From the IMG/VR virus record IMGVR_UViG_3300031673_000016: a stretch of DNA of 20,000 nt. One strand, written 5' to 3'. The position numbers and the translations under genes are program-made. Below, in pieces: positions 10,495-15,768 of this stretch; the stretch's first letter is position 1; each line of letters begins with the position of its first letter. The DNA is from an uncultured virus (IMG/VR IMGVR_UViG_3300031673_000016). Its lineage: Duplodnaviria > Heunggongvirae > Uroviricota > Caudoviricetes. The notes under the pieces are model-generated. The model was not told the origin of the DNA, did no database searches, and saw only the letters and a list, made by a program, of their open reading frames with translations.

Positions 10495-11300
10495 ACTGGG
10501 TCGACCTATTCGGATCGCGCGAGTACGACTTTCCGCCGGAGGTCGAGGTCGGATCAAGCTTCGTCGGCGGAGCGACCTACCCTGACGCGCTCGTCATTCA
10601 GTCGGAACTGCACTACCCGCAGCGAATCCTGATCCAGACGATGGACCTCGACGTGAGTGACGAGACGAATCGAAGAGAACACATTCGTGTGACGCGCGTT
10701 GTAGCGGAACTCCACGGTGGTGAACTCGTTGAGATTTCCAGGATGGCACAAAAGATCGAGGCTCAGGACGCAGTAGACACGTCTGTATGCGTCGGCTGCG
10801 GCGTCGGCATCGTCGAGGGCCAGCACGTCATCGTCGACGGCGCGGCGTACCATAAGCGGTGCATCACGGAGAACGAGGAGGAGAGGCATGATCGTCGCGA
10901 CCGTGGCGGTGCTGATCGGGTTCGTCCTGGTCTTGGCGGTGATGGAAATCGCGAGGACGTCACGGAAGCCGCGGGGGCTCGAGTTCCACGAACGTCTACG
11001 CCGAAGACGGTAACGAAGGGATTCAGCGACGATGATATCTCCCTATCGCACGCCGTGACGGTATCGCGCTTCGGTGCCGAGTACGATCTGGTTACGCTCT
11101 GGGCGCGCGAGTACGGCGGACGCAGCGGCACCGTCAGTGGTAGGTGGCCGAACGGCTTCCACGTCGACGACATCCCGAAGCGTCACGAAGTCGCGTACGT
11201 CGAGGAGAAGTTCTTCAACAGCGGGCTCCTGGTATCCAGTGCAGATATCGCGATCTGGCACCGGCTCTACATCAAGGCACTCGAGGAGATCGGTCGATGA
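10491..11300 (+). CDS. Hypothetical protein with LIM-like C-x2-C-x17-H-x2-C zinc finger; possibly a fusion or read-through of two genes
   Basis: RBS GAGGAG and ATGA overlaps at both ends. Both ends look coding, but 10887-11010 reads like an off-frame translation. Confidence 0.6.
10888..11013 (+). CDS. Nested 41-aa single-pass membrane peptide (+1 frame)
   Basis: ATG preceded by [53 protein letters not shown]. Third positions of the hydrophobic part are almost all G/C. Confidence 0.55.
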   Translation: MIVATVAVLIGFVLVLAVMEIARTSRKPRGLEFHERLRRRR

Positions 11301-14300
11301 CGGTGACCAAGGCCCAGATCATCGCAGCGATCCAAGCTGTAGCAGACGCGAGCTTGAACGGGAACATCAGGATCGGCCTCGGCCTCCCAGGCAACCACGT
11401 CGAGAACAGTATCGGCGAGATGCAGCCCTCGGGTGGAGCGTGGATTCCGGAACCCAAGACGTGGCCGGTCGTCATCGAGGGGCTGGCCGATTGGCTGGAC
11501 GCGCACGCTATGAGCGGACCAACGGGCCCGACCGGGCCAACGGGCGCCACGGGCGCTACTGGACCGAGCGGGCCGGCCGGAGCCACGGGACCGACTGGAC
11601 CAACGGGGGCGACCGGGGACCCCGGCGCTGCTGGCGGGTCACTGCGGTTCGCCTACGCGGCTGCCCTGGGTGCACCGGCCCTGGGGCACTTTTCATTCGA
11701 CGACGCCGATCCGACCCTGGCCCTGCACATGTACGTCAGCGACTTGGACAGCGACGGCGGCAACATCGAGAGCTGGATTCAGCTGTGCACCGTCGGTAGC
11801 TTGGTCACGATCTACAAGCTGGGCGACTACACGTCCTATCTCGTGTTCCTGGTCCACGGGTTCGTCACCGACAGTGGCGGGTACTGGGACTTCCCCGTGT
11901 CGTACATCGCGGACTACGGCGCCATTGCCGACGGCGACGAGTGCTTCGTGGGGCAGATCGTCCGCGGGATCGACGGGCTGACGGGCCCGGGCGGGCCCAC
12001 AGGGCCGACAGGCATTCCTGGCGCGACCGGAGCCACCGGATTGACCGGCCCCGCTGGATCCCAGGGGACCACAGGCCCGACGGGAGAGACCGGTGCGACA
12101 GGACCAACAGGTCCTACTGGCCCAACCGGTGAGACGGGCCCCACTGGCGTCACTGGTGCGACCGGACCTAGCGGTCCCACAGGTGAGACGGGCGCCACGG
12201 GGCCCTCCGGCCCAACTGGGGACACAGGTCCAACCGGACCGACAGGAGACACCGGTCCAACTGGATCTACGGGATCGACGGGACCAACGGGAGCAGTTGG
12301 TGCCACGGGGCCGACTGGTCCAGCAGGGGAAACCGGTCCTTCTGGAGCGACTGGCAGCACAGGAGCCACTGGGGCGAGCGGCGCCACGGGGCCGACCGGC
12401 CCGGTTGGTCCCACGGGGATGACCGGAGCGACTGGTGACACGGGGGCCGCAGGCGCGACGGGAGCGACTGGTCCGACCGGGCCCGCTGGCAGCACGGGGG
12501 CAACAGGCGCAACCGGCGCGACAGGTTCGTCTGGAGCAACTGGACCTACAGGACCCACAGGATCAACTGGTCCCACCGGGCCAACCGGCCCGCAGGGTGA
12601 GTCCGCGGGGCAGACCTACTTCTTCTGGCACGACCCGGTGGCCGATCCGCCAGGATACGAGGGGCTGGAGCGTATCCCGGCGTTCAGCGCGGAGGACGAC
12701 GAGTTCGTCACCGTGAACAGCGGGACCGGCGAGGTCCTGATCGACGCGTACATCACGAGCCCGGGTGATCCTGGCTTGTCCCTCATCGAGGCTGGGATCT
12801 GGCGATTCCGCCTGTGGCACTACGTCAGTTCCGCAGTAGGCGTCACGACGTTCGTCTACCGGATCTACAAGCGGTCCGCAGTGGGCGTCGAGACGCTGAT
12901 CCTGGGACCGGTGACGACAGCGGAGGTGGACGAACTTGCAGCGGCGGAGATCCTAACGCCGTTCGCGCAGCTTGCGGATATCCCACTAGATACGACCGAC
13001 AGAATCGTGATCAAAATCTGGGCCCAGACGACGCACCCGTCCGACATCGACGCCCACTTCGTTTATGAGGGGACGGCGCACGCATCGCATGTAGAGACAA
13101 GGATAGGCGTGGTGGGAGTCATCGGTCCGGTTGGTCCCACGGGATCAACGGGGGCAGTCGGCGCCACGGGGCCTACCGGTCCTGCGGGAGAGACTGGTGA
13201 CACGGGTCCCACGGGTCCCACGGGTCCAACAGGGCCTGAAGGTCCGACGGGAGCGACCGGCGATGCTGGTATAGCCGGGGCCACTGGTGCAACCGGACCG
13301 AGTGGTCCGACTGGTCTGCGCGGTCCAACCGGCCCGACTGGACCCAGTGGACCGACAGGAGGAACAGGTCCGACTGGTCCCGAGGGTCCCACCGGGGCGA
13401 CGGGATCAACGGGAACCACCGGTCCCACGGGACCAGCGGGGCCGACTGGAGATGCCGGGGCAACGGGGGCCACGGGAGATACCGGTCCAACAGGACCGAC
13501 CGGAGCGACAGGCCACACAGGATCGACCGGTGAAACAGGACCCACTGGTCCGAGTGGCCCCACTGGTCCGACTGGCCCCTCTGGTCCGTCAGGACCGACC
13601 GGTGAAGGACCGACTGGCCCAACCGGACCTACGGGTCCGACTGGACCAACTGGTTTAAGTGGTCCGCTGCGAGCCACTCCAGACGCGAACATGCTCATGC
13701 TGTACAAGCTAGATGAGACAGCCGCACCGTTCGTAAATTCCGGCGTGGGTGGCGCTGCCGATCTTGCACTGGCGGGTACTCCGCCAATTGGGCTAGCCGC
13801 CGGTCGATATGGTGCTGCCCCGTATTTTGAAGGGACAGTCGGTCAGTATATTTACGGTAACGGAGTGTCACTTGCCGGTGTAACGAGTGTTAGCATGTCA
13901 CTATGGTACTGGTGCTGGGCTCCAATATCGCTGGGCCGTATTGCTCTCAAGAAGTACCTTGCAGACAACTCTTGGGCCGCCCCCTATGCGGCCATGGAGA
14001 TTGATTTTGAAAGTTCGACTAGTGGGTCATGGTTTGTAGGAGTAACGACTGGAGCAGGTACGCGCAGACTGCTTTCTGTATTGACCCCGTATTTTCTGCG
14101 TACCGGAGTCTGGTGTCATTTGGGTCTGACTTACGATGGACACTATCTGAAGGCGTATCTAAACGGCATGCTAGTGGGAACGAGCGCCGATTTTAATGAA
14201 GCGTTTGATCCTGGAAGTGGGCAATTCGAGATTGGTGGCAGGATAGGGCAGGGAACAGTCTATGGGGTTGTGCATGATTTACAGGTCAGCAACGTGGAGC

Positions 14301-14359: not shown

Positions 14360-15768
14360 TGAATAGTCTTCGAATCAGTGTTTCAATGATCGTCCGCAGC
14401 GAGGAGGCGTGTCTGGCTACGGCGCTGGCATCGGTGGTGGGCGCGGACGAGTTGGTGGTCGTGGACACGAGCCTGCCAACCGATCCGTATGACCGCACGC
14501 TGGAGATCGCGCTGGACTACGGAGCGCAGTTGTTTCAGTTTCCGTGGCGTGACGACTTCGCATCAGCGCGGAACTTCGCGCTATCGAAGTGTCACGGGGA
14601 CTACGTGCTTATCATCGACGCCGACGAGGAGTTGGAGCCGGGAGGCATCGAAAAGGTGCGTGCCGCCATCGGTCACATGGGGACGTACAAGACGATGAGC
14701 TTCGAGACGGTGGCCGCCAGGGGTGGAGCGATGCACCGGTCACAGCGGGTGTTCCGCCTCTGCGATGAGGTGTACTGGAAGGGAGCGATTCACAATCACC
14801 TGAGCGTGGCCGAGGCGTATCCAAGTGACGTGCGGATTACGTACGGCTACAGCGAGGCGCACAAGCAGGACCCGGACCGGGCGCTGCGCATCCTGACCAA
14901 GGAGATGGAGCGAGATCCCAAGCTGGTGCGCGAGGCGTACTACCTGGGGCGGGAGCACTGGTATCGGAAGCAGTACGTCGAGGCAGCTCGGTGGTTCGCG
15001 GACTACCTGACCAGGGCGACGTGGGCCCCGGAGATGGCCGACGGGTGGCTGTATCTGGCCCGGTGCCTGTGGCAGCTGCGCCGCGGCGAGGAAGCACGAG
15101 ACGCCTGCTTGCAAGCCATCAAGATCAACGCGGACTTCCGCGAGGCCCTGTTGTTTCTGGCGGAGATATCCGGGCCGAAGAACCGAGAGCGCTGGCGCCT
15201 GTTCGCGGAGCTAGCGAACGATGAGGATGTGCTGTTCGTCCGCTCCCCAGTGGCACAGCCAGCGGAGTATTACGACAGGCTGTTCGCCGCCTCGAAGGAC
15301 ATGACGAGGTATGATCGGCTGCTTCGCATGGCGGCCGACTGGAGCTGGGGGCGCGTCCTGGACGTGTGCTGCGGGACGGGGGAGCTGGCCAAGCACATCG
15401 AGGACTACCACGGTATCGACTTCTCGGCCGAAGCGGTCCGTGACAACCCCAGGACGAGGCATGGGGACGTGTTCCGCGAGAACCTGGCTGGTTACGACAC
15501 CTATGTGATCCTAGAGGCGTTGGAGCATCTGGACGACCGAGCGCTGCTGGCGCGGATCCCGCTGGGGGCGGATGTGGTGTTCTCCGTCCCATCCTTTGCT
15601 GACCCGGCGCATCTGCGGACTTACAACGAGAAGATCGTGAGGCTGCGGTACGCCGATCTGCTCCAGGTGCAGCGGGTGGTCCGGTTCAACTGGACTGGTG
15701 CCGAGTGGAGTCCGGACCAGCAGGACACGCCGAACTACATATTGCTGGTTCGCGCAAGGCGTAGGTGA
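14359..15768 (+). CDS. Glycosyltransferase family 2 + TPR + class I SAM-dependent methyltransferase fusion
   Basis: TGATG coupling to the fibre gene. GT-A motifs ISVSMIVRSEE, ADELVVVDT, WRDDFASARNFAL, IIDADE, WKGAIH. TPR helices AYYLGREHW.../GWLYLARCLWQL.../ALLFLAEI. MTase motifs VLDVCCGTG, GIDFS, EALEHL, VFSVP. Confidence 0.9.
   Translation: MNSLRISVSMIVRSEEACLATALASVVGADELVVVDTSLPTDPYDRTLEIALDYGAQLFQFPWRDDFASARNFALSKCHGDYVLIIDADEELEPGGIEKVRAAIGHMGTYKTMSFETVAARGGAMHRSQRVFRLCDEVYWKGAIHNHLSVAEAYPSDVRITYGYSEAHKQDPDRALRILTKEMERDPKLVREAYYLGREHWYRKQYVEAARWFADYLTRATWAPEMADGWLYLARCLWQLRRGEEARDACLQAIKINADFREALLFLAEISGPKNRERWRLFAELANDEDVLFVRSPVAQPAEYYDRLFAASKDMTRYDRLLRMAADWSWGRVLDVCCGTGELAKHIEDYHGIDFSAEAVRDNPRTRHGDVFRENLAGYDTYVILEALEHLDDRALLARIPLGADVVFSVPSFADPAHLRTYNEKIVRLRYADLLQVQRVVRFNWTGAEWSPDQQDTPNYILLVRARRR

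Follow-up and report, generated by a model that had tools for sequence, protein, structure and literature searches.

A collagen-like fibre gene overlapping a GT2-TPR-methyltransferase gene in an uncultured tailed phage: a candidate cassette for glycosylation of a virion fibre

What does an enzyme that joins a glycosyltransferase to a methyltransferase do immediately behind the gene of a collagen-like fibre? The question is raised by a 20,000-nucleotide stretch of DNA (hereafter the window) from the uncultured virus IMG/VR IMGVR_UViG_3300031673_000016, which reads as a contig of an uncultured tailed phage, has a G+C content of 58-68% and carries nearly all of its long open reading frames (ORFs) on the plus strand. 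Within it the gene of a 1020-residue collagen-like fibre (11297..14359, plus strand) and that of a 469-residue enzyme (14359..15768, plus strand) overlap by stop and start codon as TGATG at 14357..14361. The enzyme combines a family 2 glycosyltransferase (GT2), a tetratricopeptide-repeat (TPR) domain and a methyltransferase dependent on S-adenosylmethionine (SAM). From the comparisons below we consider it probable that the pair is a phage-encoded self-glycosylation cassette for the virion fibre, in which the fibre is the proposed acceptor and Thr and Ser at the Y positions of its Gly-X-Thr repeats would receive the sugar.

The fibre gene starts at ATG 11297, which overlaps the stop codon of the preceding gene as ATGA and has GAGGAGA 8-14 nt upstream; its stop codon is the TGA at 14357-14359. 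A regular-expression search for runs of at least four G-X-Y triplets counted 147 triplets in four runs (residues 74-115, 224-436, 604-771 and 774-791), broken by three non-collagen segments, with Thr at 105/147 (71%) and Ser at 14/147 (10%) of the Y positions and Pro at 72/147 of the X positions. Pfam matched Collagen (E 3.3e-59) and, at residues 900-1005, Laminin_G_3 (E 9.6e-10, 39.2 bits against a cutoff of 27.6), and on these scores the collagen nature of the protein is far beyond chance. Long Gly-X-Y runs flanked by non-collagen domains also fit the pattern of PF01391. No hydrophobic segment or signal peptide was found in the fibre, the highest Kyte-Doolittle window being 1.26.

Along the fibre, all on the plus strand, an N-terminal non-collagen segment without a family match (residues 1-73, 11297..11515), probably the attachment end, is followed by collagen run 1 of 14 triplets (residues 74-115, 11516..11641) and by an interrupting globular segment (residues 116-223, 11642..11965) weakly similar to segments of the collagen fibres in loci L056 and L013. 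Collagen run 2 has 71 triplets, mainly G-P/A-T (residues 224-436, 11966..12604). It leads into a mid-domain (residues 437-603, 12605..13105) that is common to enzyme-linked fibres elsewhere, recurring in L044 (44% identity, E 1e-40), L012 and L009. Runs 3 and 4 together add 62 triplets (residues 604-791, 13106..13669), and the C-terminal ConA/LamG-like domain (residues 792-1020, 13670..14356; Laminin_G_3) is the probable distal or receptor-binding end. Matches of the fibre to tail-fibre families in PHROGs depend on the collagen repeats. The L044 and L009 fibres that share the mid-domain belong to the same gene cluster as the collagen-bearing L044 protein with an N-terminus resembling tail PHROGs. 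Within the window we propose for this protein the class of virion fibre, which may be that of the tail or another.

For the enzyme, ATG 14359 is the best start, because GGGGACGG lies 5-12 nt upstream as a GGGGA-type ribosome-binding site and because most homologues begin at the aligned 'M.LS.SMIV'. Other in-frame starts lie at 14326 and 14386, and a database copy, P0003, has 460 residues. On the plus strand the gene encodes a GT-A/GT2 catalytic domain (about residues 1-165, 14359..14853), in which Pfam places Glycos_transf_2 at residues 7-105 (E 2.5e-14); a TPR-like helical domain (about residues 166-285, 14854..15213), with TPR_19, TPR_14 and TPR_2 matching residues 196-270 at E about 3e-6; and a class I SAM methyltransferase domain (about residues 301-469, 15259..15765), matched by Methyltransf_12 and by Methyltransf_23 (residues 319-395, E 2.4e-6, 27.8 bits against a cutoff of 27). 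An AlphaFold2 model built from 33 homologues (mean pLDDT 94.1) resolves the same parts: strands and helices of a GT-A fold at residues 6-162, where the GmaR match described below also falls, seven TPR-like helices at residues 166-285 and a Rossmann-type methyltransferase at residues 333-468. A hydropathy scan found no transmembrane segment, as befits a soluble enzyme. When enzyme residues 1-300 were modelled together with fibre residues 224-300, without controls, the complex scored 0.00, which speaks neither for nor against binding. The first-pass annotation of this DNA, made by a model from the letters alone, had described about 146 Thr-rich collagen triplets, the TGATG overlap and a gene combining GT2, TPR and SAM methyltransferase; all of this stands, with the triplet count raised by one. 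As an observation on composition, positions 14001-15000, which hold the first half of the enzyme gene, are the poorest in G+C of the whole window (0.579, with 0.59-0.68 elsewhere) and show its highest GC skew (0.21), which hints at a history unlike that of the neighbouring genes.

The catalytic motifs are intact. D87 and D89 of the DADE motif (residues 87-90) are invariant in 33/33 aligned homologues, as are the LD..CG of methyltransferase motif I (VLDVCCGTGE), the SVP motif, and L334, C338, G339, D354, E386, E389 and H390. Altogether the DxD and at least 40 more positions, SAM-binding motifs included, do not vary among 33 homologues with identities as low as 43%. This conservation bears on the idea of a protein that serves mainly as a TPR-based chaperone or assembly factor for the fibre, or as a methyltransferase acting on protein or nucleic acid, with the glycosyltransferase vestigial or aimed at phage DNA. 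TPR domains do mediate protein binding, and a gene for a dedicated assembly factor often comes after a phage fibre gene. Freshwater actinophage glycosyltransferases have been proposed to protect DNA, according to the part of PMC10202952 available. We nevertheless hold such a role to be very unlikely, in view of the invariance of both active sites, of the fusion partners found in relatives, which are sugar-tailoring enzymes, and of Pfam and PHROG scans of the window that found no hydroxymethylase or other hypermodified-base gene.

Among characterised proteins the enzyme is nearest to protein and peptide glycosyltransferases, as the first-pass annotation had supposed. With the family profile the best PDB sequence match was GmaR (E 5.8e-45, query residues 3-181), followed by SunS (2.7e-24) and ThuS (2e-23). 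By Foldseek the best fold matches were ThuS and SunS (E about 1e-18, 275-374 alignment columns), and the methyltransferase domain matched UbiG and small-molecule O-methyltransferases.

The enzyme family is large, with 650 proteins at E <=0.001 among 8000 candidates, many on contigs of 41-51 kb, and at least 568 of 600 IMG/VR pattern matches encode a relative. Two main architectures occur, GT2-TPR-methyltransferase proteins of about 465-480 residues and GT2-TPR-only proteins of about 290-300 residues. The subfamily of the window enzyme itself (P0004-P0015) is 60-75% identical. Among the matches listed, the closest viral locus (L001/L493, 65% identity) lacks the methyltransferase and has a 12-triplet GPT ORF 3 kb upstream. 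In INPHARED, tblastn with the enzyme returned 11 records, all below 60% identity and at no more than 57% coverage, so that no cultured phage with the full enzyme was found there. As a candidate for a cultured cassette, gp263 of Pseudomonas phage PaBG was rejected (27% identity, no collagen neighbour).

Is the pairing with a collagen gene a property of the family? We defined a collagen-like ORF as one with at least 10 GXY triplets in runs of at least 6, and compared the best 80 loci with a homologue, drawn from the relatives just described (942 kb), with 80 viral loci taken from the same collection by an arbitrary 14-mer (870 kb). Collagen-like ORFs were present in 50/80 of the former and 2/80 of the latter. 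When enzymes were collapsed at 90% identity, 59 clusters including the window remained, 38 of them with at least 3 kb on both sides. In these 38 non-redundant loci a collagen ORF is the adjacent gene in 15, lies within 3 kb in 29 and occurs anywhere in the locus in 32. The linkage that the first-pass annotation had asked about is thus conserved (29/38 within 3 kb against 2/80 random loci), and the cassette is no isolated case but belongs to a large metagenomic family. Nearly all collagen ORFs within 3 kb (43/44) share the strand of the enzyme, 31 lying upstream and 13 downstream, and abutting or overlapping junctions of no more than 25 bp are common in relatives. By architecture, a collagen ORF lies within 3 kb in 19/21 short forms and in 8/15 methyltransferase-fused forms, window included. 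Some loci owe their negative score to the threshold or the flank: in L009 and L036 the GXT runs are truncated or short, and the same fibre family has 149 triplets in L044. Among more distant viral relatives, 17/43 loci hold a collagen ORF, several of which abut a glycosyltransferase-methyltransferase gene.

The composition of the linked collagens was compared with that of phage collagens at large. A degenerate GG-N7 pattern, blind to the enzyme, gave 63 distinct control contigs with flanks. In enzyme-linked collagen ORFs Thr makes up 65% of Y positions overall, and the median fraction of Thr plus Ser at Y is 0.73 in 39 non-redundant enzyme-linked loci (window excluded) against 0.29 in the 63 controls. 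The fraction reaches at least 0.6 in 30/39 linked and 22/63 control loci (Mann-Whitney p 1.6e-6, shared descent ignored). Conversely, a GT2-TPR relative lies within 8 kb in 5/63 control loci, namely in 4/22 of those rich in Thr and Ser and 1/41 of the others (Fisher p 0.046, a test of rich against poor loci that likewise ignores shared descent). The enrichment and the reciprocal counts together indicate that the enzyme goes with hydroxyl-bearing Y positions. As a separate observation, viral loci L396/L397, L423/L424 and L429 hold collagen-like ORFs of 547-906 triplets with Thr plus Ser at Y of 0.75-0.98 and no GT2-TPR relative within 8 kb; these long collagens may have another modification system or none.

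A parallel was found outside phages. A metagenome scan with the subfamily alignment returned, among the matches listed, mostly a distant gut clade: 80 loci, many from gut and on contigs of up to 230 kb, with GT2-TPR genes 30-35% identical to the window enzyme. A collagen ORF is present in 51/80 of these listed loci, mostly directly beside the GT2-TPR gene. In L286 (8672-11038) a 427-residue collagen gene is followed by a 348-residue GT2-TPR gene whose product is 34% identical to the window enzyme over 257 residues of the glycosyltransferase and TPR parts (E 3e-32). This contig, the one among them whose neighbouring genes were scanned, encodes thymidylate kinase, DNA polymerase III delta' and two-component systems and so plainly comes from a bacterial chromosome. 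About 50 more metagenome pairs (L281-L356) were seen, often at contig ends, presumably because the repeats break assemblies. These pairs look like uncharacterised systems of the SgtA/BclA type. Among more distant cellular GT2 relatives in species-representative genomes a collagen ORF was found in 1/77 loci. The best cellular match is 39% identical across its glycosyltransferase and TPR domains, and a partial match of 157 residues reaches 50%. A tree of roughly the first 300 residues, built by FastTree from 166 rows, unites the phage clade (67 rows) with the collagen-linked clade from gut (64 rows) at SH-like support of 84 and sets both apart from the unlinked cellular enzymes; no collagen ORF lies within 3 kb of any cellular GT2 relative included there.

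The methyltransferase has a context of its own in relatives. GT2(-TPR) cores are fused to Methyltransf_24 and a second DXD glycosyltransferase in L058:2956-4896 and L065:2532-4586, an arrangement that the Pfam TcdA_TcdB glycosyltransferase domain model matches as well, to GT64 and a polysaccharide pyruvyl transferase in L066:2095-4290, and to a sulfotransferase-like domain (a weak match) in L040:4345-5883. Separate small methyltransferase genes stand beside short GT2-TPR genes in L017, L034, L035 and L038, that of L017 overlapping the glycosyltransferase gene at its end. Also found repeatedly in the neighbourhood are a Methyltransf_13/14 C-methyltransferase of the NDP-sugar type, DUF6625 and another glycosyltransferase. 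Such fusion, fission and swapping of modules suggest that the sugar attached by the N-terminal domain is the substrate of the C-terminal one. The methyltransferase of the window is therefore probably a sugar-tailoring module, with the attached sugar as the likely target of the methyl group, and the domain swaps and split genes favour the capping or decorating role that had been suggested for it at first sight.

Put together, the proposed pathway would run as follows. The fibre and the enzyme would be made from one coupled message, presumably late in infection. The soluble enzyme would act in the host cytoplasm on the collagen-like chain before it trimerises, the TPR domain probably holding the extended substrate chain. 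The GT-A domain, as a metal-dependent inverting GT2 enzyme with DxD, would transfer a sugar from a nucleotide sugar to the hydroxyl of Thr or Ser at Y, with up to 119 such sites per fibre chain; by analogy with GmaR and SgtA our best guess for that sugar is a HexNAc such as GlcNAc. The fused methyltransferase would then O-methylate the attached sugar as a cap or decoration. Modified chains would finally trimerise into a glycan-coated fibre with the ConA/LamG-like domain at its distal end. The benefit could be stabilisation of a triple helix that lacks hydroxyproline, shielding from proteases or immunity, or adhesion.

Several observations weigh against fibre glycosylation and have to be set beside the alternatives that they favour. 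Methyltransferase-fused homologues are linked less tightly to collagen genes, at 7/14 within 3 kb once the window is excluded. In L016, L018 and L024 the enzyme has a capsid gene close by, and the flank present holds no collagen. L014 likewise shows no collagen nearby; its GT2-TPR-methyltransferase gene is followed, two genes downstream (7970-10534), by an 855-residue collagen-free fibre homologue with the mid-domain of the window fibre, so that collagen repeats are not an absolute requirement of the association. In relatives generally the enzyme sits in virion structural modules, beside HK97-type and Mu gpT-type major capsid, head-closure and virion structural genes, in several cases only 2-4 genes from the major capsid gene (Phage_capsid or Mu gpT-like); other neighbours encode LysM lysins and proteins with LamG domains or LRRs. 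These arrangements would suit an enzyme that glycosylates some other virion target (the capsid, the tail tube or the fibre outside its collagen repeats), the collagen linkage then reflecting a shared structural module, and for mycobacteriophages capsid glycosylation by phage glycosyltransferases has been proposed (PMC11256854, in the part available). We think this unlikely. The adjacency occurs in both gene orders, the linked collagens are rich in Thr and Ser at Y, and the pairing is also found on bacterial chromosomes, outside phage modules. Moreover, placement in a structural module cannot by itself give a collagen ORF in 32/38 loci, since only 2/80 random viral loci hold one.

The window pair itself sits amid replication and lysis genes, outside any recognisable tail module, and this non-structural setting would fit an enzyme aimed at a host envelope polymer such as wall teichoic acid, lipopolysaccharide (LPS) or capsule, which would block superinfection or alter receptors in the manner of the prophage-borne TarP or of seroconverting phages. 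The wall-teichoic-acid glycosyltransferases TarS, TarP and RmlT are indeed fold matches too (E about 1e-8; WrtF likewise at about 1e-8), and the PHROGs label for the enzyme family is beta-1,4-glycosyltransferase, under 'moron, auxiliary metabolic gene and host takeover'. We nonetheless consider an envelope target quite improbable: the matches to protein and peptide glycosyltransferases are much stronger, a transmembrane segment is absent from the enzyme, no GtrA/GtrC-like partner turned up among the 23 ORFs of the window that were scanned, and fewer than 1 in 10 relatives were found in bacterial genomes at high identity. Such a target would also leave the collagen linkage and the Thr/Ser enrichment unexplained.

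The remaining points on that side concern the statistics and the substrate of fibre glycosylation. The loci are kin by descent, so that the counts and p-values overstate their independence. Support for the clade uniting phage and gut enzymes is modest (84, by FastTree), and long branches are present in the tree. Most Thr-rich phage collagen loci (18/22) have no GT2-TPR relative nearby, and Thr at Y is common in bacterial collagens regardless of glycosylation, at 48% in Gram-positives according to the available part of PMC8968730. With these weighed, glycosylation of the collagen-like fibre by its neighbour remains the reading we favour.

The rest of the window is consistent with a phage genome. 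A recombination and replication block (483-6149) comprises, by Pfam and PHROG scans, an HNH endonuclease (483-1130), a YqaJ/RecE-like exonuclease (within 1036-2364), RecT (2403-3653), a DnaD-like loader (3673-4692) and a DnaB helicase (4689-6149). It is followed by genes without assigned function, an Amidase_2 endolysin and four more genes of unassigned function. The endolysin has 286 residues, with the amidase match at residues 84-159 only, and together with the 301-residue protein behind it occupies 8042-9823; the latter has an N-terminal hydrophobic segment and no family match and may be a lysis accessory. Directly 5' of the fibre gene lies a 269-residue ORF (10491-11300) whose stop forms the ATGA overlap with the fibre start; it has no match in Pfam, PHROG or NCBIfam, and its ESM Atlas leads were all sub-threshold. 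The ATGA and TGATG overlaps couple three genes, the 269-residue ORF, the fibre and the enzyme, in series. Pfam and PHROG scans place, 3' of the enzyme gene, an HNH-like ORF and then a DUF5131 gene and small membrane proteins. The DUF5131 protein (16537-17598) has weak matches to radical-SAM and 'rSAM mobile pair protein A' families, well under the curated cutoffs. Three small ORFs (16406-16741 and 17612-18348) have strongly hydrophobic N-termini (Kyte-Doolittle 2.26-2.48), and one of them has a weak holin PHROG match, so they may form a holin cluster distant from the endolysin.

As to the host, the first-pass annotation had placed the phage in a Gram-negative bacterium, and this is unsupported: neither a cultured relative nor a host marker came out of the searches of INPHARED and with DnaB and the endolysin. 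At the DNA level no similar cultured phage was returned by megablast of 8000-20000 against INPHARED, the endolysin had zero matches among INPHARED phages, and DnaB had matches of only 31-35%, to phages of many unrelated hosts.

What was already known is the modification of collagen in mimivirus, virion glycosylation in some mycobacteriophages and the bacterial SgtA/BclA3 system, as far as the available parts of the sources cited below describe them. A literature search, with most subscription journals outside its reach, found no report of a glycosylated phage collagen-like fibre. Collagen-like proteins and glycosyltransferases were noted in the same phages in PMC10202952, where, in the part available, the enzyme is read as modifying DNA or cell wall. 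PMC8402811 was set aside, the available part being unrelated to phage collagen glycosylation. Beyond the single cassette we offer, tentatively, a broader possibility: that in many uncultured phages the collagen-like fibres of the virion are coated with a diversified glycan of the phage's own making, started on Gly-X-Thr by a GT2-TPR initiator and extended by swappable modules (O-methyl, C-methyl, sulfate, pyruvate, a second or third sugar), giving lineage-specific surfaces that would influence adsorption, host range and escape from proteases, lectins and antibodies.

If this holds, a glycan layer of the interactions of phages with hosts and with animals would have been overlooked through annotation as a host-takeover 'moron'. 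Should the fibre be glycosylated as proposed, the family's database label (beta-1,4-glycosyltransferase, 'moron') would be corrected. Virion O-glycosylation would be a widespread trait of uncultured phages, with the enzyme family on more than 500 viral contigs, and not confined to a few actinobacteriophages. It would become clear how phage collagen fibres that lack hydroxyproline and have more than 100 Thr sites could be stabilised or shielded, and there would be a concrete enzyme-substrate pair open to testing. Practically, a glycosyltransferase and methyltransferase in one compact polypeptide would be a tool to decorate recombinant bacterial collagens, and fibre glycan coats would bear on phage therapy, through immune recognition and stability, and on host-range prediction.

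How does the pair compare with known systems? GmaR of Listeria monocytogenes O-glycosylates a cytoplasmic protein destined for an external filament. It shares with the window enzyme the GT2 and TPR parts and homology of the glycosyltransferase domain, and it is described as a flagellin O-GlcNAc transferase and anti-repressor of MogR (available parts of PMC9638930 and PMC3150276). It differs in having no methyltransferase and in being a regulator as well, and no flagellar or MogR-like gene was found among the 23 window ORFs scanned. SunS is encoded by the SPbeta prophage, as the title of its PDB entry states, but SunS and ThuS S-glycosylate Cys of small peptides, unlike the O-glycosylation proposed here. 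Membership of the SunS family itself (TIGR04195) was rejected at 32.8 bits against an NCBIfam cutoff of 350, no glycocin or small Cys-rich peptide gene having been noted. Gtr-type seroconversion (GtrA/GtrB/GtrC) was also rejected as a model, the enzyme having no transmembrane segment and Pfam and PHROG scans of the window no such partner.

Among viruses, virion glycosylation has reportedly been shown for some mycobacteriophages in a primary study of actinobacteriophages, and the acceptors there are capsid and tail-tube subunits, unlike the collagen repeats proposed for the window. That phage glycosyltransferases decorate the phage's own structural proteins has been proposed, with cluster F mycobacteriophages as an example, in the available part of PMC11256854. 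Mimivirus resembles the window as a virus with collagen-like proteins and glycosylating enzymes, L230 and collagen glucosyltransferases (PMC9546862, PMC12279948, PMC8968730, each in the part available). It is unlike the window in its hydroxylysine-linked sugars, in its enzyme families and in being a eukaryotic giant virus.

Closer parallels come from bacterial spores. The BclA glycan holds a methylated sugar, anthrose, and we know of no single fused glycosyltransferase-methyltransferase enzyme for BclA. As a GXT collagen-like filament that is O-glycosylated, BclA of Bacillus anthracis and B. cereus is like the window fibre (PMC8968730, in the part available); it is unlike it as a spore protein served by multi-gene glycan pathways. 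The same part of that source states that BclA is glycosylated and that prokaryotic collagen-like proteins mostly are not, and it describes phage collagens as short stretches of about 18 residues in capsid proteins, with no mention there of glycosylation for them.

The nearest likeness is to SgtA and BclA3 of Clostridioides difficile. In the available part of PMC7157674, SgtA is a 358-residue protein with GT-A at residues 1-260 and TPR at residues 262-358, its gene lies immediately upstream of bclA3, and in vitro the enzyme adds beta-O-GlcNAc, with dependence on Mn2+, to Thr (and also Ser) of GPT-repeat peptides. The window shows the same order of GT-A and TPR, the same adjacency to a collagen gene and repeats of the GPT type. 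SgtA itself is likened here by description, and the kinship is approached through the chromosomal collagen-adjacent GT2-TPR genes, whose identity to the window enzyme is 30-35%. The analogy first drawn from the letters has on its side architecture, gene adjacency and homology to these chromosomal genes. The window differs in that its enzyme is borne by a phage and carries an extra fused SAM methyltransferase, and in that its acceptor would be a fibre with a LamG-like tip, not a spore protein. Judged by these sequence comparisons, the cassette would be a widespread phage version of SgtA/BclA3-type collagen O-glycosylation.

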